Both the position numbers and the translations under genes were made by a program. This document shows, piece after piece, positions 1 to 40,796 of a DNA stretch of 64,000 bases. Numbering within the stretch: the stretch's first letter is position 1; each line of letters begins with the position of its first letter. Under the pieces are notes generated by a model. It did not search any database and was not told the origin of the DNA. It saw nothing but the letters and a program-made list of their open reading frames with translations. The DNA lies in IMG/VR virus record IMGVR_UViG_3300020370_000002, positions 1 through 64,000 of that record; one strand, written 5' to 3'. Source of the stretch: a virus.

Positions 1-45
1 GGTAAAATGAGCGCGGCCTACTGGGCCAACAAAGTGAAATGGTAA
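1..45 (+). CDS. 3' end of a conserved phage hypothetical protein (partial)
   Basis: Frame 1 reads GKMSAAYWANKVKW*, a C-terminus typical of small basic marine-phage proteins; truncated by the window edge. Confidence 0.6.
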   Translation, partial: GKMSAAYWANKVKW

Positions 46-47
46 TC

Positions 48-98
48 TCGTTCATCCTTTAAGGACGGAAGTAAGGAGCACTTAGCCTGAAGGAACGC
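48..98 (+). ncRNA. Glutamine riboswitch (glnA RNA motif, glutamine-I class)
   Basis: CGTTC-A-TCC(TTTAA)GGA-CGGAAGTA-AGG(N9)CCT-GAAG-GAACG-C: P1 CGTTC/GAACG, P2 hairpin, AGTA/GAA E-loop P3; matches the recalled glnA motif consensus; followed by a YRG peptide ORF. Confidence 0.85.
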
Positions 99-124
99 CA
101 GACACGGCTAAAAGGAGAGATACT

Positions 125-178
125 ATGAAAGAAGTAACTTTAGTCTATCGTGGTGTTACATACACTAAAAAGGTATAG
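125..178 (+). CDS. 17-aa DUF4278-like (YRG) peptide MKEVTLVYRGVTYTKKV
   Basis: Strong SD AAAGGAG (111-117), ATG 125, TAG 176-178; L-x-YRGV-x-Y is the hallmark of peptides downstream of glutamine riboswitches; too short for the ORF track. Confidence 0.8.
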   Translation: MKEVTLVYRGVTYTKKV

Positions 179-191
179 GGAGAGGTAAAAT

Positions 192-782
192 ATGGATATA
201 CTTTTAGAACTTGCAACAACTTTTTGGCAATGGAGCGTAGTAATCGTTCTAATTTTAATTGGTTTTATAATCAGTTGGTTTGACGGCCAAGGAGAAGAAC
301 GTGTAGGTTTTAAAATGCCCTTTGGTATGCCCGTATTACAACCTATACCAATAGAAACAAAAGACAAAGGGTTTTGGAAAGGGATTCTTCTGTGGCTTCT
401 TGGTAAAAGACAGTGGGAGGTCGCAGAAGACTTCTGGTTTAAACTAGACGGAGAAACCTACATGATTCCCGCAGGATTTCAGTTTGACGGGGCTTCTGTA
501 CCAAAGTTTCTTGCTACCTTTCTTTCGCCTGTAGGAGTTTTACTTATGGGTGGTTTAGTACATGATTATGGGTACAAGTACGCAACTTTAATGAGAGATG
601 ACGGTACTAATATTGGTTATAGAGACCAAGCGTACATGGACAGACTTTTTCGAGATATATGCATCGAAGTAAACGGGTTTAAATTTTTAAACTATCTTGC
701 CTACTGGTCACTTCGCCTTGTTGGCTTTGTGGCTTGGAACGGGCACAAAAAGAGAGGTACGCATACTGAGGAGAGCGCATGA
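192..782 (+). CDS. DUF1353-family protein with N-terminal membrane anchor
   Basis: IPAGFQFDGASVP...LVHDYGY...DRLF motifs; hydrophobic N-terminus; SD GGAGAGG. Confidence 0.75.
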   Translation: MDILLELATTFWQWSVVIVLILIGFIISWFDGQGEERVGFKMPFGMPVLQPIPIETKDKGFWKGILLWLLGKRQWEVAEDFWFKLDGETYMIPAGFQFDGASVPKFLATFLSPVGVLLMGGLVHDYGYKYATLMRDDGTNIGYRDQAYMDRLFRDICIEVNGFKFLNYLAYWSLRLVGFVAWNGHKKRGTHTEESA

Positions 783-1012
783 GTGAAGAAGGTAAGAATA
801 AATACCAGAAGTGGATTGATTTAGCAGAAGCTGTAGATAGCTGGAGAATATTTCCACGAGCATTTTTAAGCGTGTATATCTTTCTTCTCTACTACAGCAC
901 AATGTGGTTTATGGCCTTAGAAGCACCAAGCCTTGAACAGTCGGGCCTTATATCAATTATCGTGGGTGCGGGTGCTGCATGGTTCGGATTATATACAGGA
1001 AGTAAAAAGTAA
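779..1012 (+). CDS. Small two-TM membrane protein, holin candidate
   Basis: 77 aa, two hydrophobic helices, DSWRIFPR motif, basic C-terminus; ATGA overlap with the upstream gene. Confidence 0.55.
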   Translation: MSEEGKNKYQKWIDLAEAVDSWRIFPRAFLSVYIFLLYYSTMWFMALEAPSLEQSGLISIIVGAGAAWFGLYTGSKK

Positions 1013-1021
1013 GAGGCCACT

Positions 1022-2326
1022 ATGGCAATAGAGATTAGTCGAGCGGATATTATTTCGCAAGAGCTATTAGAGTTACAATCTGAGACAAGGTTTCTCAAAT
1101 TACCAGTAGATCCCTACTTGGAGCTACTCGGCATAACGCCCCTTGCTAGTCAAGTGGCGATCATAAATGCGATTAATAATCCGAAATACCGTTTTGTATG
1201 TGCGGCTGTTTCGAGAAGGCAGGGTAAAACCTACATCGCAAACATAATCGGGCAGCTAGTTTCGCTAGTTCCCAACTCAAACATACTCATAATGTCCCCC
1301 AACTATGCCTTGTCTCAGATTTCTTTTGATCTTCAAAGAAATCTGATAAAGCACTTTGATTTAGAAGTTGCGAAAGACAATGCAAAAGATAAGGTAATAG
1401 AACTAACAAATGGATCCACAATTCGAATGGGAAGTGTTAATCAGGTTGATAGCTGTGTTGGTCGTAGCTACGACCTTATCATCTTCGATGAGGCTGCTTT
1501 GGCCGATGGCAGGGATGCTTTTAACGTAGCCCTACGCCCCACGCTGGATAAAGACAATTCAAAAGCAATCTTTATAAGTACCCCCAGAGGAAAAAACAAC
1601 TGGTTTTCAGACTTTTTCTACAGAGGCTTTTCAGATGAATTTAAAGAATGGGCGTCTATTCGAGCTACTTATAAGGATAATCCTCGCATGTCTGAGACGG
1701 ATATTGCGGAAGCTCGAAAATCTATGTCCGAGGCTGAGTTTCGACAAGAGTATGAAGCAGATTTCAACACATACGAAGGACAAATTTGGAACTTTAATCA
1801 CGAAGAATGTATTGGAAACTTCGACGAGATTGACACCTCAAAGATGGATGTCTTTGCGGGCTTGGATGTCGGTTACCGAGACCCTACGGCCTTTTGTGTA
1901 ATTGGCTATGACTGGGATGAAGAAAAGTTTTACTTACTGGATGAGTACTTAGATGCCGAACAAACAACAGAAACTCACGCAAAAGAAATTCAAGCACGAA
2001 TTGATAAATGGGGTATTGACTATATTTATATCGATTCTGCTGCGCAGCAAACACGATTTGACTTCGCACAAAACTATGACATATCTACTATTAACGCAAA
2101 GAAGTCCGTTCTCGATGGAATCGCGCAGGTAGCTGGAATAGTAGATAATGATAAATTACTTGTTGAACAGACTTGTAAAGAATCCCTCTCTGCGTTAGAT
2201 CAGTACCAGTGGGACCCCAATCCCAACCTAATGAAAGAGAAACCGAAACACAACTATGCATCGCACATGGCGGACGCGTTAAGGTATGCATTATACTCAT
2301 TTGAGACTTCGGCAATAAGTTTTTAG
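1022..2326 (+). CDS. terL: Terminase large subunit (T5-like)
   Basis: Walker A SRRQGKT, Walker B LIIFDEAA, ISTP motif III, nuclease GLDVGYRD and HMADALRY. Confidence 0.97.
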   Translation: MAIEISRADIISQELLELQSETRFLKLPVDPYLELLGITPLASQVAIINAINNPKYRFVCAAVSRRQGKTYIANIIGQLVSLVPNSNILIMSPNYALSQISFDLQRNLIKHFDLEVAKDNAKDKVIELTNGSTIRMGSVNQVDSCVGRSYDLIIFDEAALADGRDAFNVALRPTLDKDNSKAIFISTPRGKNNWFSDFFYRGFSDEFKEWASIRATYKDNPRMSETDIAEARKSMSEAEFRQEYEADFNTYEGQIWNFNHEECIGNFDEIDTSKMDVFAGLDVGYRDPTAFCVIGYDWDEEKFYLLDEYLDAEQTTETHAKEIQARIDKWGIDYIYIDSAAQQTRFDFAQNYDISTINAKKSVLDGIAQVAGIVDNDKLLVEQTCKESLSALDQYQWDPNPNLMKEKPKHNYASHMADALRYALYSFETSAISF

Positions 2327-2348
2327 GATACCTGGTCAAAAATAATAT

Positions 2349-2377
2349 TTGACATGATACCCCAAACTAGGTATAAT
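2349..2377 (+). promoter_or_regulatory. Consensus sigma70 promoter
   Basis: TTGACA-N17-TATAAT, with AAAAATAATAT upstream. Confidence 0.85.
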
Positions 2378-2411
2378 TCTATCATTGAAAAATTAGAAAT
2401 CCAAGAACCTA

Positions 2412-2777
2412 ATGGTCACACTTAAACGAGATATAGTAAAATATATTCGAGACAAAGCGAAGAATAAGTACGATAAAGGTTCGGAGTGCTACATTTGTGG
2501 AGCAACAGAGAAACTTGACTTTCACCACTATTACACGTTAGCGCCCCTAGTACATAAATGGGTTCGGGAAAATGACTTAAATCCTATGTACGTTCTTGCT
2601 TTCAGAGAAGACTTTATAGAGGACCACCACGACGAATTATACGTACATGCGGTTACTCTATGTCATACGCACCATAGACAATTACATAAAGTATACGGAC
2701 GAGACCCAGGCCTTGGAACAGCAAACAAGCAGAAGCGCTGGGTAGAGATACAAAGAGAAAAACATGGCATGGTATGA
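2412..2777 (+). CDS. HNH nicking endonuclease (T5-like, between terL and portal)
   Basis: CYIC...DFHH...TLCHTHH zinc/HNH motifs; same position as the T5 nicking endonuclease. Confidence 0.8.
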   Translation: MVTLKRDIVKYIRDKAKNKYDKGSECYICGATEKLDFHHYYTLAPLVHKWVRENDLNPMYVLAFREDFIEDHHDELYVHAVTLCHTHHRQLHKVYGRDPGLGTANKQKRWVEIQREKHGMV

Positions 2778-3975
2778 CAGATTCTTAGGCAGGGAAGACG
2801 AGGAAAAAGCTAATCCCGCACAGTCGCTATTAGGAGGGACTTCCGAGAGTACTCGAGAGCCTACTATAAGCTATGAGCGACAATACGAAGAATTAGAAAT
2901 TGTCAACCGTGCAGTTAATATGATTGTTGATGACGCTGCAGAAATTCCTTCTACAATATTAGGCTCTAGGCGTCAAACAGGAATTATAAAAAACATAAAA
3001 AGAGCAAAAGTTAATCAGCTCTTAAATGTAGAACCAAACTTATTTCAAGATATAAATACATTTAAGCGTAACTTAATAACGGACTTTATACTAGATGGAA
3101 ATATTTTTATATACTACGATGGAGCACATTTGTACCATCTTCCTTCAAGTAAAATGTCTATTGAAGCAAGCGAAAGCACCTATGTAGAAAAATATACTTT
3201 CTCTCAGTCTATAGACTATAGCCCAAAAGAAATCATTCATATAAAAGAAAATTCTTTTTATTCTATTTACAGAGGAGTACCTAGACTTAGTCCAGCCTTG
3301 AGAACTATGCAGTTAATTGGCTCAATGAGAAAGTTTCAAGATAATTTCTTTAAAAACGGTGCAGTTCCAGGATTAGTTTTAAAAAGCCCTAATACTCTTT
3401 CTGAAAAGATCAAAGAGAGAATGATACAATCATGGAGTGTAAGGTATAGGCCCGAAGGCGGAGGAAGGCGCCCTTTAATTTTAGATGGCGGCATTGAAGT
3501 TGATTCTCTTTCTAATACTAACTTCAAGGATTTGGACTTTCAGAATTCAATATCAGAAAATGAAAAAATTATACTTAAAGCTCTTGGCGTACCACCCATA
3601 TTACTTGATTCAGGTAATAATGCAAATATAAGACCAAACTTAAGATTGTACTATTTAGAGACGATACTCCCAATAGTGCGAAAAATAAACTTTGGGTTTG
3701 AAAGATTTTTTGGGTTTGAAATTAAAGAAGATATTACAGATATCCCCGCTTTACAGCCAGAGTTAAGAGACCAATCAGCGTATTATACCTCCCTAGTAAA
3801 CGGTGGTATAATAACTATAAACGAAGCAAGAGAGCAGCTAGGTTTTGAACCTATTGCTGGTCAAGACGAAGTAAGAGTTCCTGCAAATATAGCAGGGAGT
3901 GCAGCAAACCCAGACGAAGGGGGAAGGCCTGCCGAATCAGAAGAAACTATAACCGAAGATGGAGAGGAAGAATAA
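2764..3975 (+). CDS. Portal protein (T5 pb7/HK97-type)
   Basis: 403 aa; LDGNIFIY, EIIHIK, FFKNGAVPGLVL, ITINEAREQLG motifs. Confidence 0.95.
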   Translation: MAWYDRFLGREDEEKANPAQSLLGGTSESTREPTISYERQYEELEIVNRAVNMIVDDAAEIPSTILGSRRQTGIIKNIKRAKVNQLLNVEPNLFQDINTFKRNLITDFILDGNIFIYYDGAHLYHLPSSKMSIEASESTYVEKYTFSQSIDYSPKEIIHIKENSFYSIYRGVPRLSPALRTMQLIGSMRKFQDNFFKNGAVPGLVLKSPNTLSEKIKERMIQSWSVRYRPEGGGRRPLILDGGIEVDSLSNTNFKDLDFQNSISENEKIILKALGVPPILLDSGNNANIRPNLRLYYLETILPIVRKINFGFERFFGFEIKEDITDIPALQPELRDQSAYYTSLVNGGIITINEAREQLGFEPIAGQDEVRVPANIAGSAANPDEGGRPAESEETITEDGEEE

Positions 3976-4287
3976 ATGGCGGGATCGTCAGTACAAAAGA
4001 AAAAAATGGCAGTTACAATGGCCATGTATTTCGCAGAGAATGGTTATCTTCCAACTCCAAAAGAATTCTCGAACGACCCCATTAGACCACCAGAAATAAA
4101 AATATCAACTATACGAAAAATATTTGGTTCTTGGTCGATAATGGAGAAATATACGAGATCATTTTGTCCCGACATTATGCGTGGACTTACTAATGTAAAG
4201 CCTAAAATAATCGATCCTTTAAAGGAGCTAAACAAGGCACAGACCGCAGAAGCGGAAAAAGAGGGGGCAAATGGAAAAAGTATTTAA
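3976..4287 (+). CDS. Small basic protein with homing-endonuclease-associated repeat-like motif
   Basis: LPTPKEF...ISTIRKIFGSW resembles the HNH-associated repeat signature; abuts both neighbours. Confidence 0.5.
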   Translation: MAGSSVQKKKMAVTMAMYFAENGYLPTPKEFSNDPIRPPEIKISTIRKIFGSWSIMEKYTRSFCPDIMRGLTNVKPKIIDPLKELNKAQTAEAEKEGANGKSI

Positions 4288-6241
4288 TCTCACCTCTACT
4301 TTTAAGTCTCATACTGAAGAAGATGGTAGTGTTATGATTCGAGGTATGGCTAGTACCAATGACTTTGATCGCGCGGGCGATTCAATTTCAACTGATGCTT
4401 GGACTAAAGGTGGATTAAACAATTTTGAAAAGAACCCTATTATTCTTTTCAATCATGATTACAACAGACCTATTGGTAGAGCTACTGGTTTAAAAACTAC
4501 TGCCAATGGACTGGAGCTGACTGCTAAGATAAGCAAAGCAGCAAAAGATGTTGTAGATTTAGTTAAAGACGGTGTTCTTGGGGCCTTTTCTGTTGGTTTC
4601 CGAGTCAAGGACGCTGATTATATCGAGGAAACCGACGGTTTAAAGATAAAGGACGCTGAGTTGTTTGAGGTATCGGTAGTATCTGTACCATGTAATCAAT
4701 CAGCTACTTTTTCACTGGCGAAGTCTTTTGACTCCATGGCGGAGTACGAAGAGTTCAAAAAAACTTTCACTAATAGTGACGGGGCGCAAGTCCAAAAGGA
4801 GATAACAATGTCTGAAGAGACAACTCAACCCGTTGACTTGGAAGCTTTTGCTAAAAAAGTAGCTGAGGAAACTGCTGCTAAGATAGCCATGAAGCAAGCC
4901 GAGCAAAAAGCAGCCGATGAGGCTGTACAAAAAGAGGCTGAAGAAAAAGCTACTGCGGAAGCAGAAGCTAAAGCTCAGCAAGAAACAGAAGTTAAGCAAG
5001 CTATAGTTACAGGCGTTGAGTCTGGAACTGAGCGTTTGCTTTCTGATGTTGAGGCTAAGTTGGCAGAAAAAGATGCTAAGATGGATGAAGTCATCAAGCA
5101 GCATGAAGCCGACCTCAAAGAAAAAGCCGAAGAAATTGAAAAGATGCGTGATTCTAAGCGTGTTTTTTCCGATCGTGATCGCGGCGACCTAACCAAGTTT
5201 GGCAAGGATTTCCTCCAAGCTCATATTCTTGGTAAAATTACTCGTAAAGGGTGGGATACTGGCTTTGGTAAAGAAGTATTACAAAAAGCCGGCGTAACTT
5301 ACGATGCTACTAGCGCAGCTGGTATCGACGTAAATGTTTCTGCAGCTTTTGAAGAGGAAGTAAGACTTGAGCAGAAGGTTGCTCCTCTCTTCCGCGAAAT
5401 CGCTGTAGCATCTGGTGCAACTGTACTACCCATCGCACCCGATACTGAGAACGCAAACTGGAACAACACTGGTTTGGAAACTGCGGGTAACCTGTTAGAA
5501 GAAGCTGGTGCTACTGATAACAACTACAACGTTAACCGCGTGTTGTTACAGGCTTACAGACTTGTATCAGGTACGTTTATTGCTAACGATACTGATGAGC
5601 AGGTTGTAATTAGCGTTCTTCCTATCATTACTTCCGCTCTTGCAAGAGCACATGCGAAAGCAATTGATTCAGCCATTATGGTTGGAAACTCTTCTTTCGT
5701 AGGTCTTGTTGGTGGAGCTGGTACTGACGGTTCTGGATCTTTCCTCGCAGCAGATTCTGCTCTTGTAACTGATCCTGATGCATCTGGTACTTCCGATGCA
5801 ATCACAGGCGCAAACTTGCTTTCCATCCGATCTGAGATGGGCAAGTATGGTATGAGCCCTACTGATGTTGCATACATCGTTGGTATTGACCAGTACTACA
5901 ACCTTATTGCCGATGCCGCATTCCAGGATGTGTCAGAAGTTGGTTCCGACACAGCAATGAAGCTGGTTGGTCAAGTTGGAAGCATTTACGGATCACCTGT
6001 AATTGCTACTGATGCACTTGCTCAAGGTACGAAGGAAGGTGGAGCCTTTGCAGGAACCGCTGCTGTTGCCGTAAACGTACGCAACTATGTTGTACCTCGA
6101 CTGAAGGGTGTTAGCATTGAGACCGACTACGAAGTAGCGGGTCAGCGCACAGCCATTGTTGCCGCACAATCTCTCGGATTTAACGAGTTGGTTGCTGGCA
6201 CAACTAACAATGAGCCTGCAGTACGAATCGAGTATCAGTAA
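4271..6241 (+). CDS. Prohead protease - scaffold - major capsid protein fusion (HK97 fold, T5 pb11+pb8-like)
   Basis: N-terminal S78 protease (LFNHD, FSVGF, LFEVSVVSVPCN), then a coiled-coil delta domain, then the capsid domain (GSIYGSPVI); no stop between them. Confidence 0.92.
   Translation: MEKVFNLTSTFKSHTEEDGSVMIRGMASTNDFDRAGDSISTDAWTKGGLNNFEKNPIILFNHDYNRPIGRATGLKTTANGLELTAKISKAAKDVVDLVKDGVLGAFSVGFRVKDADYIEETDGLKIKDAELFEVSVVSVPCNQSATFSLAKSFDSMAEYEEFKKTFTNSDGAQVQKEITMSEETTQPVDLEAFAKKVAEETAAKIAMKQAEQKAADEAVQKEAEEKATAEAEAKAQQETEVKQAIVTGVESGTERLLSDVEAKLAEKDAKMDEVIKQHEADLKEKAEEIEKMRDSKRVFSDRDRGDLTKFGKDFLQAHILGKITRKGWDTGFGKEVLQKAGVTYDATSAAGIDVNVSAAFEEEVRLEQKVAPLFREIAVASGATVLPIAPDTENANWNNTGLETAGNLLEEAGATDNNYNVNRVLLQAYRLVSGTFIANDTDEQVVISVLPIITSALARAHAKAIDSAIMVGNSSFVGLVGGAGTDGSGSFLAADSALVTDPDASGTSDAITGANLLSIRSEMGKYGMSPTDVAYIVGIDQYYNLIADAAFQDVSEVGSDTAMKLVGQVGSIYGSPVIATDALAQGTKEGGAFAGTAAVAVNVRNYVVPRLKGVSIETDYEVAGQRTAIVAAQSLGFNELVAGTTNNEPAVRIEYQ
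4808..6241 (+). CDS. Major capsid precursor from an internal in-frame start
   Basis: AAGGAG (4796-4801) + 6 nt + ATG 4808, in frame with 4271; gives 477 aa starting at the coiled coil. Confidence 0.7.
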   Translation: MSEETTQPVDLEAFAKKVAEETAAKIAMKQAEQKAADEAVQKEAEEKATAEAEAKAQQETEVKQAIVTGVESGTERLLSDVEAKLAEKDAKMDEVIKQHEADLKEKAEEIEKMRDSKRVFSDRDRGDLTKFGKDFLQAHILGKITRKGWDTGFGKEVLQKAGVTYDATSAAGIDVNVSAAFEEEVRLEQKVAPLFREIAVASGATVLPIAPDTENANWNNTGLETAGNLLEEAGATDNNYNVNRVLLQAYRLVSGTFIANDTDEQVVISVLPIITSALARAHAKAIDSAIMVGNSSFVGLVGGAGTDGSGSFLAADSALVTDPDASGTSDAITGANLLSIRSEMGKYGMSPTDVAYIVGIDQYYNLIADAAFQDVSEVGSDTAMKLVGQVGSIYGSPVIATDALAQGTKEGGAFAGTAAVAVNVRNYVVPRLKGVSIETDYEVAGQRTAIVAAQSLGFNELVAGTTNNEPAVRIEYQ

Positions 6242-34638: not shown

Positions 34639-36747
34639 ATGCCAGTTAAATTAGGTGGTTCAGGAGGCGGTGGCGGACAAGTCACAGAAATTTCTGCTAC
34701 AGCAGATGGCGCAATAGCTAATGGAGCACCCTGTATTCAAAGTGGAGATGGAAAGATTGCGACTCCCGTAGGAAATATTGCTGCTAACGCAATAGATGTT
34801 GGTTCAAATACATCTTCAAATAATAACTCCGCTTATTATGCGTTTTATAACGGAATTACTTTTGTTGATAGAGCCGCTGGTAGAGGGATTCTGTTAGGCA
34901 ATCAAGGCGTGGGGTATAACTACCGTGCTACATGCAAATTATTCACGGTAAATACAAGCACAGGAGGAGGGACAGCAAGTGGCATGACTTCTACAAATTT
35001 TAGTTACCCACAAGGCACTGGTGTAAACTATACGCAGTATCCAGTAGGAGCAATTTGGGATGCAGATACTGATTCATGGTTTGGTTGTTACCGTTTTAAT
35101 TCCTCAGCTAGCTATGGACTAAATATGTTTAAACATAGAACTACAAATGGTACAACAAGTACAGCGGGTTACGGGCATACCTTTGGCACTACTAATTATT
35201 GGAATCCGTATTCAAGTCAAAGCGTTGGATCAACTAGATTTATAGAAGCAAGAGGATTCAAATATGTAATCACTACTGGAAGCACTCAGGCTTATGGCAG
35301 AGACTCTTGTATGGTGCATGGGCCGTTTACGTGGACTTCAAATGCGCATGACGGAGGTGCGTTCGGTGCTCATGTTGTAGCAACAGATTACGTTGCGAAT
35401 GGGTATAACTATACCGCAGATGCAAGTTATGATTCCGCTAATGAACAAATCGTAGTAGTAACCGCGAATTATAACGCTGGTGCTCACAATCAAACTCTTT
35501 ATGCTTTTGACGTAGCCGCTAATGGGACAGTAACGTATTCTCACTATCTTGCGAACGCTGGTGGAGCTGATGTTATAGGCCAAATTCGAGCAGTTGAGTG
35601 TGATACAGCAGGCAATATAGTTTGGTCTGAATTAACTGCGAAAAAATTTTATGCTGCTTCAAACAACGGAAGTGCTTTTACAAAAGGCGGCTCTTTAGCA
35701 TGGCCTGCTGGGGTTCATTCTCAGATAAGTATGCGATATAGTTCTACTTATAAAAATTTTGTTGCGAGTTTTTGTCCAGCCAATTTTTCGGCCCTCCCCC
35801 CTCCTAAACATATTATCTTTGCAGTAGGAGCTGGCAATTTTTCAGATAAGACTTTTACGTCAGCAGGCACTGGTTCTACTTATGGCACATACGGAAACTA
35901 TGCAGGCTACCAGGACTATCCGACTAGCTCAGCAAAAATAGGCGGTAACTTCGCGGATACTACAGATACCTTTATTCAGTACAACTTCGGAAACGCAGAT
36001 GGTAACACCGTGTCGGAAGTAAATAGTAATAAAATTGCCACTAGCAATTTATTTACAGGTAATTATATAGGTTTAGCAAAAGCCGCTATATCTAATGGAG
36101 CATCTGGAACTTTAACAACAAAGGGTGCGATAAATGAATCTCAATCTGGACTTACTGCGGGTGCGAGATATGCGGTAACACCAACAGGCACGGTAAAAAC
36201 AGAGTCTTCTTTAACTGACGCAGAGCAGCTATCAAGTGTTTTTCTTGGAACCGCTACTGCTACGAACGCTATTATCGTAGGGGATAGTTTAGTTGCAGTA
36301 GATTCGTCTGCTATTCATAACGATGTACCTAAGGGAGTAGCCACTAGCGGGAGTAGCACTCCTGCTGCTTATTCAACCGACGGTTGGACGAGTGTATTAA
36401 ATAGGTTCGGTATAAATACTTCAAGCGTAACCGCAACAGGAACAAATACCATACTCAAAGTTACAGGTAGTGGTACAGTTTTATATTTTATCCTAGGTGG
36501 GCAAAGTCAACAATCAACAAGCGTAACAGTACATATTGATGGTGTACAGATTATAGAGTCAGGCACGATTACTACTGGAAATAGCTATCCTTATTGTCCT
36601 ATTGGTGAATTTGGTGGAGTAAACAGCAATAAACACGGAAACTTCTCGCCTTCAACGGCTTTTAGTTTTAATAAAAGTTTTGAAGTAAAAAACAATGGTG
36701 GAACAGCTACAGCCTTTTATATAGGCTATAGAATAGTAGAGAACTAG
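34639..36747 (+). CDS. Large fibre tip / receptor-binding protein
   Basis: 702 aa, Gly/Ser/Thr/Tyr-rich; ATADGAIANG...YIGLA...QSGLTAGARY.V split domain flanking a variable core. Confidence 0.65.
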   Translation: MPVKLGGSGGGGGQVTEISATADGAIANGAPCIQSGDGKIATPVGNIAANAIDVGSNTSSNNNSAYYAFYNGITFVDRAAGRGILLGNQGVGYNYRATCKLFTVNTSTGGGTASGMTSTNFSYPQGTGVNYTQYPVGAIWDADTDSWFGCYRFNSSASYGLNMFKHRTTNGTTSTAGYGHTFGTTNYWNPYSSQSVGSTRFIEARGFKYVITTGSTQAYGRDSCMVHGPFTWTSNAHDGGAFGAHVVATDYVANGYNYTADASYDSANEQIVVVTANYNAGAHNQTLYAFDVAANGTVTYSHYLANAGGADVIGQIRAVECDTAGNIVWSELTAKKFYAASNNGSAFTKGGSLAWPAGVHSQISMRYSSTYKNFVASFCPANFSALPPPKHIIFAVGAGNFSDKTFTSAGTGSTYGTYGNYAGYQDYPTSSAKIGGNFADTTDTFIQYNFGNADGNTVSEVNSNKIATSNLFTGNYIGLAKAAISNGASGTLTTKGAINESQSGLTAGARYAVTPTGTVKTESSLTDAEQLSSVFLGTATATNAIIVGDSLVAVDSSAIHNDVPKGVATSGSSTPAAYSTDGWTSVLNRFGINTSSVTATGTNTILKVTGSGTVLYFILGGQSQQSTSVTVHIDGVQIIESGTITTGNSYPYCPIGEFGGVNSNKHGNFSPSTAFSFNKSFEVKNNGGTATAFYIGYRIVEN

Positions 36748-38875: not shown

Positions 38876-39037
38876 CTACCAGTGGTGTATCACTCCTGAA
38901 ATTATAAAGAAGCAAGTTATAAAATTTACTAATACAACTATACTTCTTATAATAGCCACTAAATCTGCTTCGTGGGAGTCCTCGGATGCTTTTTCTCCAA
39001 GAGACATTGCCCATAACTTCCATAGTCTAGCCCTCAC
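38876..39037 (-). CDS. Small membrane hypothetical protein
   Basis: WKLWAMSLGEK...EAD...IRS...GVIHHW; probable GTG start overlapping the nrdA end. Confidence 0.55.
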   Translation of the reverse strand: MRARLWKLWAMSLGEKASEDSHEADLVAIIRSIVVLVNFITCFFIISGVIHHW

Positions 39038-40796
39038 AGGCCAAACAGCCTTCGTCGTCCATACTCTCAAAGATATACTGTCGGAGAGCTTCATCAGATA
39101 CTGTTTCGGCTCTCTTTATTGCTTCACTTCTTAAATAGTACAGAGTTTTTACTTTTTTCTTCCATGCCATCATATGAATAGCATGAAGTTCTTGTTTTGA
39201 AACATTTGCAGGAAAGAAGATATTTAAAGACTGACTTTGACAAATTTCTTTTTGTCTGTCTGATGCCATTTCTATTATCCATCTCTGGTCTATTTCTACA
39301 GCGGTCTTAAAGACATCTCTAGTCCAATCATCCAAAAAATCAAGATGCTGAACAGAACCATTGTTTGTAATAATACTTTTCCATACTTCATCAGTATCTT
39401 CTCCTATTTCTTGTAGTATGTGTTCAAGGTATTCATTCTTTAAAAGAGATGATCCCGATTTTGTTTTCTGCGTAAATGCATTAGCGCGGTATGGCTCGAT
39501 ACTAGGAGAAGTATTCCCACAGATAATAGAACTGCTAGCATTGGGAGCCACAGCCAAAAGATGAACATTTCGAACACCCTCGCCAATAGCATCAGGGGCT
39601 TCACCACGCTCCACAGCCAAAGTTGTTGTAGCATTTACTGCCTCCGATTTTATATGTCTAAACATTCTTGCATTATGGCTTTTTGCGATTGCACTCTCAA
39701 AAGGCACATTATGTCTTTGTAAGTAGGCATGGAAGCCCATTGCTCCCAGTCCAAGACTTCTTTCCATTTCAGCACTATATTTTGCTTTTGATAACGTGTC
39801 GGGTGCATTTTCCACAAAGTAAGAGATTACATTGTCTAGCATCCGTATAAGGTCTGGAATAAAGTTCTCATCATTCTTCCACTCGTCATACTCTTCAAGA
39901 TTTACACTTGATAGACAGCATACTGCTGTTCTCTCTTCGTTTGTTGCAAGCGTAATCTCTGAGCACAAATTAGAGTGGTGAACCCGTAACCCCTGCTCTA
40001 ACTGGTATAAGGGGAGAGCTTCTTGTACTGTATTCTTAAATACAATATACGGCTCACCAGTTTCTACTCTATTTTGTATTAGCTTTACCCATAATGTCTT
40101 TGCAGACACGGTTTTAACAACTTTTTTTGTATGTGGGTCTATAAGATCCCATGAATCGTTAAAACCAGGCTCTCTTGTAGCCTGCTCAATTAGCCCCATA
40201 AACCTATCGCTAAGGAGAACACCATGATGCAAATTAACAGACTTTCTATTAACATCGCCTCCTGTGGGCTTACGTACGTCCAAGAACTCTTCGATCTCAG
40301 GGTGAGATATATCCAAATACGCCGCATAACTTCCTCTCCTAGTTACTCCTTGTGAAAACGCCAACATTTCTGCGTCAACAACTTTCATGAATGGTATGAC
40401 TCCTGTGCTCTCAGAGCCGTTAGATGTTTTTGAGCCTACAGAGCGAATAGCTGACCAAGAGCCACCAACGCCACCACCAACACTGGAAAGAAAAGCATTT
40501 TCTGTGTAGTGGCTCGTGATTCCCTCTCTGCTGTCCTCAACATAATTAAGAAAACAACTAATAGGCAAGCCGCGAGTTGTTCCGCCATTAGAGAGTATAG
40601 GAGTAGAAAACATAAACCAAAGTTTACTAGCATAATCATAGAGCCTCTGTGCATGCGCTTCATTATCTGAAAAAGCTTTTGCAGCTCGCGCAAAAGCATC
40701 CTGAGGAGATGTTTCTCCTTCGATTAAATATCTATCTTGTAGAGTTTTGTGACTAAACTCTGACAGATAGTTGTCTCTCTTGTAATCAATTAACAC
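39027..40796 (-). CDS. nrdA: Ribonucleotide reductase class Ia alpha subunit (no ATP cone)
   Basis: PISCFL, SNLCSEI, VAPNASSS, TLYYLR, C-terminal CLAC. Confidence 0.96.
   Translation of the reverse strand: MLIDYKRDNYLSEFSHKTLQDRYLIEGETSPQDAFARAAKAFSDNEAHAQRLYDYASKLWFMFSTPILSNGGTTRGLPISCFLNYVEDSREGITSHYTENAFLSSVGGGVGGSWSAIRSVGSKTSNGSESTGVIPFMKVVDAEMLAFSQGVTRRGSYAAYLDISHPEIEEFLDVRKPTGGDVNRKSVNLHHGVLLSDRFMGLIEQATREPGFNDSWDLIDPHTKKVVKTVSAKTLWVKLIQNRVETGEPYIVFKNTVQEALPLYQLEQGLRVHHSNLCSEITLATNEERTAVCCLSSVNLEEYDEWKNDENFIPDLIRMLDNVISYFVENAPDTLSKAKYSAEMERSLGLGAMGFHAYLQRHNVPFESAIAKSHNARMFRHIKSEAVNATTTLAVERGEAPDAIGEGVRNVHLLAVAPNASSSIICGNTSPSIEPYRANAFTQKTKSGSSLLKNEYLEHILQEIGEDTDEVWKSIITNNGSVQHLDFLDDWTRDVFKTAVEIDQRWIIEMASDRQKEICQSQSLNIFFPANVSKQELHAIHMMAWKKKVKTLYYLRSEAIKRAETVSDEALRQYIFESMDDEGCLACEG

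Follow-up and report, generated by a model that had tools for sequence, protein, structure and literature searches.

Record IMGVR_UViG_3300020370_000002 is a viral sequence of 82,805 bp, and the window analysed here is its first 64 kb (positions 1-64,000). Near its start lies a glutamine riboswitch aptamer of type 1 (the glnA type), which precedes a gene for a peptide of 17 residues with one YRG unit. An open reading frame (ORF) of 98 codons ends just upstream, and a DUF1353 gene, a further small ORF and the gene for the large terminase (TerL) follow on the same strand (Table 1). Scans of IMG/VR by motif and of metagenomes recovered 28 further contigs, viral or from metagenomes, with the same cassette in the same position. 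The resulting alignment A2 has 29 rows, 19 of which are distinct. We suggest that the aptamer and the short gene might form a phage-borne switch in which glutamine promotes synthesis of the peptide.

Table 1. Features at the start of the window; positions are counted from its first nucleotide.
Feature	Position	Strand	Remarks
98-codon ORF, 3' end	1-45	+	Genome 77643-77939; stop TAA 43-45, 3 nt before P1
Type-1 glutamine riboswitch aptamer	47-101	+	P1 49-53/93-97, P2 55-58/62-65, P3 74-76/86-88; conserved C98 directly after P1
Linker CCAGACA(C/A)GGCT	98-109	+	Stands where the anti-Shine-Dalgarno hairpin arm usually lies; only one position varies in 29 copies
Shine-Dalgarno AAGGAG	112-117	+	7 nt before the ATG; GGAG invariant in 29 copies
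17-codon ORF MKEVTLVYRGVTYTKKV*	125-178	+	One YRG unit, like one DUF4278 repeat
Shine-Dalgarno GGGAGAGG and DUF1353 gene	177-782 (gene 192-782)	+	PF07087, 44.5 bits; Shine-Dalgarno overlaps the peptide stop
77-codon ORF (779-1012) and large terminase (1022-2326)	779-2326	+	Two hydrophobic stretches in the 77-codon ORF; both genes closely spaced after the cassette

The aptamer and the YRG peptide gene

Judged by its covariance-model match, the aptamer is genuine, complete and conserved. cmscan assigned positions 47-101 on the + strand to the Rfam family RF01739 (Glutamine riboswitch, glnA leader) with 50.8 bits, against a gathering threshold of 35, and an E-value of 3.3e-8. The match covers model positions 1-53 of 53, and every upper-case consensus position is present. 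The conserved cores CGGAAGUA and GAAGGAACGC lie in the three-helix junction of P1, P2 and P3, as an earlier first-pass annotation made from the letters alone had described for a glnA-type element. Across the whole window, RF01739 and a tRNA-Trp were the only two matches at gathering thresholds. A second RF01739 match in the record (genome 77941-77995) is the same element, because the last 4,911 bp of the record repeat its first 4,911 bp with zero mismatches. The aptamer is therefore single-copy in a unique genome of 77,894 bp. Standard pairs fill 99.1% of the aptamer pair cells among the 19 distinct relatives, where the P3 pair 74-88 is AU in 11, GU in 6 and GC in 2. This exchange points to selection on the fold.

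The short gene begins 27 nt after the aptamer. Its nearest in-frame upstream stop is the TAG at 83-85, and no further start codon lies between this stop and the ATG. Among the first 13 copies, with 9 distinct coding sequences, 12 columns of the ORF vary, and these fall 1, 3 and 8 times at codon positions 1, 2 and 3. The only amino acid replacements are K/R, V/I and K/T, and the stop swaps between TAA and TAG. One copy (L020) lacks a whole codon through an in-frame deletion of 3 nt. From this codon-position bias, the conservative replacements and the in-frame deletion, positions 125-178 are a translated and conserved gene, and the first-pass annotation was right to propose a 17-residue YRG peptide here. 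ORFs of 17-100 residues with synonymous changes and indels in multiples of three were described behind the Downstream-peptide motif (Weinberg et al. 2010, PMC2864571), and the coding signature of the phage peptide is the same. The stretch LVYRGVTY is invariant in all 29 copies and fits the hydrophobic-x-YRG-x-x-Y context of DUF4278. Codons 5-10 (TLVYRG, window 137-154) carry no synonymous change in the 29 copies; codons 4, 11, 13, 14 and 15 vary. The TAGTC at 140-144 within the ORF can pair with GGCTA at 106-110.

Expression platform and direction of control

Viral copies of the aptamer usually carry a recognizable expression platform. A viral scan for the two conserved core strings yielded at least 120 loci with at least 134 aptamer instances. 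Among the matches listed, a helix of at least 5 bp runs from the C after P1 to a site in or just after the Shine-Dalgarno (SD) sequence in 79 of 102 unique viral instances, with the helix allowed to start within three bases of that C. Over 200 rounds of linker shuffling, the number of such instances averaged 25.4 and never exceeded 35. The arms of this hairpin covary (CACCT/GGGTG, CACTC/GAGTG, CATCT/GGATG, CAATCTT/GAGATTG), and cyanobacterial genomes have CGCCTC...GAGGCG at the same place. The hairpin matches the inhibitory helix postulated for the gifB leader of Synechocystis, in which the ribosome-binding site base-pairs with the segment that begins at the C after P1 and glutamine is thought to melt the helix (PMC6212724). 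The same work reports that the gifB leader and a Prochlorococcus DUF4278 leader behave as ON switches.

By analogy with these systems, we lean, with only modest confidence, towards a functional type-1 riboswitch that controls the 17-residue YRG peptide and is turned ON by glutamine. The element would be a single-copy switch within the late/packaging operon of a marine T5-like siphovirus, and it would act on translation initiation of the basic peptide with its one YRG unit. Glutamine binding would favour translation, such that the peptide would be made when the infected cell is nitrogen-replete. The ON direction is taken from the gifB leader and from the anti-SD hairpin of most viral and cyanobacterial copies. 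The 27-nt distance between aptamer and ATG and the lack of a terminator fit control at the level of translation.

Several observations weigh against this interpretation. The usual hairpin is missing in the subfamily of the window, where the best helix from the C after P1 reaches 2 bp in each of the six members tested. The aptamer is nearly invariant within the subfamily, and its support comes mostly from the Rfam score. Folds modelled freely and with P1 forced show SD accessibility shifting ON-ward in 4 of 10 unique relatives, with no change or the opposite shift in the other 6; the SD partners were inconsistent among relatives and the modelling was not relied on. In favour of expression, contigs from two metatranscriptome runs cover the aptamer, and one of them, from an L007-type relative, continues through the peptide, but such contigs are no proof of transcription as RNA libraries can contain DNA. 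Finally, the peptide falls short of the DUF4278 profile. Extended by 4 upstream in-frame codons to meet a minimum of 20 residues, the 17-mer matched DUF4278 (PF14105) as its sole family with 14.4 bits (E 0.052), below the cut-off of 25.3, and only at profile positions 47-57 of 57. The 57-position profile spans two YRG units and the 17 residues fit one only. Each of ten longer YRG peptides from other viral loci has a DUF4278 match (E up to 0.074), and 3 of the 10 pass the cut-off. Judged by its motif, the 17-mer is one YRG repeat of the DUF4278 family and not a formal member. The label DUF4278-like in the first-pass annotation thus holds for the YRG unit and its motif context, but not for the family score.

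The first-pass annotation had also proposed a specific ON mechanism. Without glutamine, positions 45-49 and 55-60 would pair with 117-121 and 111-116, respectively, and hide the SD, and glutamine would lock P1 and P2 and free it. The complementarity of ATCTC with GAGAT and of TCCTTT with AAAGGA exists in the window as described and is part of the predicted minimum-energy fold. In the model of the window, the unpaired probability of the SD rises from 0.30 to 0.68 when P1 is forced. A remnant of the pairing is kept among relatives, with U48-A118 in 15 of 19, C49-G117 in 19 of 19 and the UCCU 55-58/AGGA 113-116 pairs in 17-19 of 19, and the podovirus P-SSP10 has a similar SD mimic of an aptamer stem. 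The other pairs are poorly kept, however, among the distinct relatives of A2 (C47-G119 in 3, U46-A120 in 13, U59-A112 in 9 and U60-A111 in 10 of 19), and L008-type copies lack ATCTC entirely. A single cell changes on both sides, which is no better than in shuffles (242/500), and there is no real compensatory change. RNAduplex gives -10.0 kcal/mol for the duplex 43-61/105-128, compared with -7.6 +/- 2.3 for 500 shuffled ribosome-binding regions, 14% of which are as good. In 9 of 10 distinct pairs, the duplex energy falls inside the shuffled range. The pyrimidine stretch also has more than one potential partner, because AAGGA is present at four places (61-65, 73-77, 90-94, 112-116). The modelled opening of the SD is likewise confined to the 4 of 10 relatives mentioned above. 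Complementarity of this quality does not exceed chance. We consider the proposed pairing an unlikely platform.

The linker that stands in place of the hairpin arm could be the platform itself. Its GGCT (106-109) might pair with AGCC (84-87), which excludes P3; its GGC (106-108) might pair with GCC (97-99), which captures C98; or TAGTC (140-144) might serve as partner when P3 is closed. The choice among these helices would reshape the ribosome-binding site. Across the 29 copies the linker stays constant, in contrast to the synonymous sites of the adjoining ORF. The AGCC/GGCT core is retained by 18-19 of the 19 distinct relatives, and codons 5-10 of the ORF show no synonymous change. Yet no covarying partner of the linker was found. 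The longer helix TTAGCC 82-87/GGCTAA 106-111 shows no covariation and loses its outer two pairs (12/19; 5/9 with letters). In relative L326, the P3 3' strand is altered in a way that breaks G85-C108, and the linker is unchanged. None of the helices covers the SD, and invariant columns are uninformative on pairing either way. A linker-based platform therefore appears doubtful to us.

A further explanation is that switching is absent and the aptamer is just a conserved leader, with the peptide made constitutively in late infection. The missing platform would fit this, as would the modelling, in which unconstrained folds leave the SD mostly open (0.59-0.73) in 6 of 10 unique relatives. Against it, all aptamer consensus positions are kept in the 29 copies. 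The AU, GU and GC exchange in P3 also implies selection on the fold. We regard the absence of switching as highly improbable and retain the glutamine-responsive ON switch as the preferred reading.

Two further pairings were rejected. A start-codon hairpin TATAG/CTATG is confined to the L028/L131 type, with an analogue in L052 and L057, and is absent from the window. Pairing of TTCAT in the P1 5' strand with ATGAA at the start codon is uninformative, as every copy of the aptamer has CAT and a purine-rich second codon of any kind would suffice. Among the three candidate alternative pairings considered in the subfamily, covariation was found in none.

Relatives and downstream genes

The relatives come from scans with different yields. 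The 16-mer scan of IMG/VR returned 76 stretches, 71 of them new; 11 had aptamer context and 7 were real. The remaining four (L124, L150, L178, L184) were unrelated coding sequence and were dropped. The metagenome scan returned 20 stretches, among them a chance match (L325), two loci with another peptide family (L322, L330) and a truncated copy kept outside A2 (L329). In a comparison of seven loci, the first five relatives were syntenic and shared the 98-codon ORF, aptamer, peptide, DUF1353, 77-codon ORF and TerL in this order. Neighbouring proteins are mostly 75-99% identical in the compared loci, with a few down to about 50%. The upstream 98-codon ORF retains 90-99% amino-acid identity in syntenic relatives and matches no Pfam family at E <= 0.01.

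The tight packing of the genes raises the question of whether the peptide is the target of control. The short ORF could mainly relay the glutamine signal by translational coupling to DUF1353, the 77-codon membrane protein and the terminase, and the switch would then time packaging or lysis. Coupling between the peptide and the DUF1353 gene is possible. The peptide stop overlaps the next SD, the gap from stop to ATG is 10-13 nt in relatives, and weaker SD sites (GGGAA, AGGAAA, AAGGAA) occur at the peptide stop in relatives. The DUF1353 gene and the 77-codon ORF overlap by ATGA, TerL starts 9 nt later, and no promoter-like site was found nearby on the + strand. Loci in which the cassette stands alone nevertheless argue against relay as the main role. 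L052 and L057 each consist of an aptamer and an 18-codon ORF with a single YRG, followed by a hairpin and then a T-run, and they thus form closed units with their own terminator. In such units, the peptide itself is likely the product. The L007/L020 type lacks the DUF1353 gene and has a gap of 34 nt and an independent AAGGAG before the next gene. In addition, conservation of the peptide extends to its amino-acid sequence, beyond what an open reading frame alone would need. We therefore give little credence to relay as the main function. A broader scheme appears improbable to us. It would place the cassette in a marine T5-like lineage of a non-cyanobacterial host, where a riboswitch with a non-standard platform heads the DUF1353, membrane protein and terminase block and provides, through coupling via the 17-codon ORF, a nitrogen-status checkpoint for packaging and lysis beyond a peptide switch. 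A promoter-like TTGATA-17-TAATAT was seen by eye upstream of the YRG unit in L057.

Phage lineage and host

By protein similarity, the phage is a distant relative of T5, namely an uncultured marine T5-like siphovirus, in agreement with the first-pass annotation. TerL is 48-50% identical to its best isolates, which are T5-like phages of Vibrio, Aeromonas, Pectobacterium and Serratia (about 50% for those of Vibrio and Pectobacterium). The same group provides the best isolates for DNA polymerase A (44-45%) and for the protease plus capsid protein (33-36%). Pfam searches recovered the T5-type replication set with FEN, SbcCD-like genes, a split NAD ligase, primase and DnaB, as well as class I ribonucleotide reductase, ThyX, PhoH and PPK2. 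T5-like phages (Demerecviridae) have genomes of about 105-125 kb and long terminal repeats with pre-early genes. The record does not match this layout, as its unique length (39.9% G+C) is shorter and its end repeat holds the terminase and portal genes. The repeat (window 1-4911, genome 77895-82805) has its two ends within the 98-codon ORF and the protease/capsid gene. Because it cuts through both genes and carries terminase and portal, the repeat is probably an overlap from the assembly of a genome that is circularly permuted or concatemeric, rather than a T5-type terminal repeat. Megablast of window 1-6000 against isolated phages gave zero matches, as did a search among isolated phages with the 702-residue protein at 34639-36747. 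The stretch is present at half or more of its words in marine metagenome runs of at least seven studies.

The host signals are mixed. The ribonucleotide reductase large subunit (window 39027-40796, - strand) is 64.5-66.5% identical to proteins of Pelagibacter podo- and siphophages, which make up 23 of the top 25 rows. It is far closer to Pelagibacter phages than any core gene is to any isolate. The Laminin_G_3 tail protein, a lectin, has 395 matching records, 344 of them from cyanophages at about 28-35% identity, and the best match along its full length is to a phage with the label Gammaproteobacteria. For ThyX and PhoH, genes of cyanophages, rhizobiophages, Melnitz and a Stenotrophomonas phage show about 50% identity. 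The tRNA-Trp has weak partial matches (79-85%) in 201 of 301 genomes of cyanobacteria, 31 of 301 of Alphaproteobacteria and 29 of 300 of Gammaproteobacteria. PPK2 is uninformative on the host: at E <= 1e-35 it has no match in 121 cyanobacteria or in 121 Alphaproteobacteria, and it matches 5 of 121 Gammaproteobacteria at 36-39% identity. The PPK2 gene itself (PF03976, 136 bits) lies in the early region at genome 65873-66475 on the - strand (L316 3873-4475). Of 112 crude ORF starts, 51 have an SD motif upstream, where the background is 7%. In 120 cellular loci with the aptamer pattern, phage proteins matched weakly at most (24-30% identity, 4 loci). The reductase thus points to pelagiphages, and the tail lectin and tRNA lean towards cyanophages; the host could be a heterotroph or a picocyanobacterium. 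The proteobacterial rather than cyanobacterial host suggested in the first-pass annotation is not established by these conflicting signals.

Relation to known glutamine riboswitches

The closest functional parallel is the gifB (IF17) leader of Synechocystis sp. PCC 6803. It also carries RF01739 directly before a YRG/DUF4278-type ORF and acts on translation initiation (PMC6212724; Klaehn et al. 2018), as the phage element would. The gifB switch is ON by experiment, whereas the phage switch would be ON only by analogy. IF17 has 149 residues and a C-terminal part that contacts glutamine synthetase (PMC6212724), while the phage peptide comprises 17 residues and one YRG unit. DUF4278-only proteins lack this C-terminal part (PMC6212724). 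Glutamine synthetase, raised in the first-pass annotation, would be at most a speculative target of the phage peptide. The two copies further differ in the anti-SD arm directly after P1, which the phage copy lacks, and in their setting, namely a phage operon as opposed to a host 5' untranslated region.

A second parallel is found in the Prochlorococcus podoviruses P-SSP10 (L314 1420-1547) and NATL2A-133 (L315 1412-1467). Both have a glutamine-II aptamer (RF01704, 51.5 bits) directly after psbA, followed by an 18-codon ORF MTVKLKYRGVTYTKTLNN that is unannotated in their records. The encoded peptide shares YRGVTYTK with the window peptide, and NATL2A-133 agrees with the window at 24 of 25 nt. 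The podovirus cassette differs in its pseudoknotted type 2 (Downstream-peptide) aptamer, where the window has type 1, and it belongs to T7-like phages of a cyanobacterial host, beside photosynthesis genes.

The first-pass annotation overstated the novelty of a phage-borne glutamine riboswitch, as such elements are published for T4-like cyanophages (PMC9964418) and for OM43 and SAR11 phages (PMC9004378). The T4-like cyanophages belong to a different phage lineage from the one described here. The OM43 myophage Melnitz, the Pelagibacter phage Mosig and related metagenomic genomes share the glnA-type aptamer (Buchholz et al. 2022, PMC9004378). Their hosts are non-cyanobacterial, and the element was read as a regulatory device of the phage itself (PMC9004378). 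In these T4-like myophages, the element is located at a two-piece transfer-messenger RNA gene (PMC9004378), whereas in the T5-like window it precedes a YRG peptide. Among the papers listed by a literature search, none linked a glutamine riboswitch to a T5-like or sipho phage, although the supplementary files of PMC2864571 and PMC6212724 may list phage copies.

T5-like siphoviruses are the third phage lineage known to carry glutamine riboswitches, after T4-like and T7-like phages. A single YRG unit of 17 residues would be the smallest form of the regulated product. The locus supports the view that marine phages generally sense the glutamine pool of the host and make YRG peptides, and our knowledge of the riboswitch class itself is unchanged. 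The peptide is small enough to be synthesized, which makes the question of what YRG/DUF4278 peptides bind easy to test. The subfamily without the standard platform provides a natural variant for studying how an aptamer is coupled to translation.

Other aptamer loci in viral and cellular sequences

Short ORFs are common behind viral copies of the aptamer. Among the matches listed, 116 of 134 viral instances have an ORF with an ATG start 8-70 nt behind the aptamer and a length of at least 12 codons; nearly all of these ORFs have fewer than 70 codons. They encode several peptide families, of which YRG is one. Other small basic families start 20-40 nt after viral aptamers (L003-L122) and include W/C/F-rich peptides of 28-35 residues and K/Q-rich peptides of 32-33 residues. 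Further families at these loci have 64-65 residues with a GGTSGY-like stretch, or 45-53 residues ending in NPFYP, the latter usually behind tandem aptamers.

Cellular copies were sought by a pattern scan of genome contigs. With 18 fixed bases and 596 Gb, about 400 chance matches were estimated, and only the 70 instances with an upstream CGTTC were kept. Type-1 switches encoded by hosts seem, from the gammaproteobacterial contigs described below, to exist in marine heterotrophs. Two single-cell genomes of SAR116 or other alphaproteobacteria (L208, L301) have a second, variant core about 15 nt after the aptamer, with TCGGAAGT replacing ACGGAAGTA, and three more from the same groups (L214, L244, L292) show the start of such a core. 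A simple scan of these five alphaproteobacterial loci found no short ORF. Contigs from gammaproteobacterial metagenome-assembled genomes (L263, L256, L307) carry a glutamine riboswitch and then a long hairpin (CACCAAAC...GTTTGGTG). In L263, the hairpin is followed by a 463-codon ORF that, by eye from its N-terminus, resembles the small subunit of glutamate synthase.

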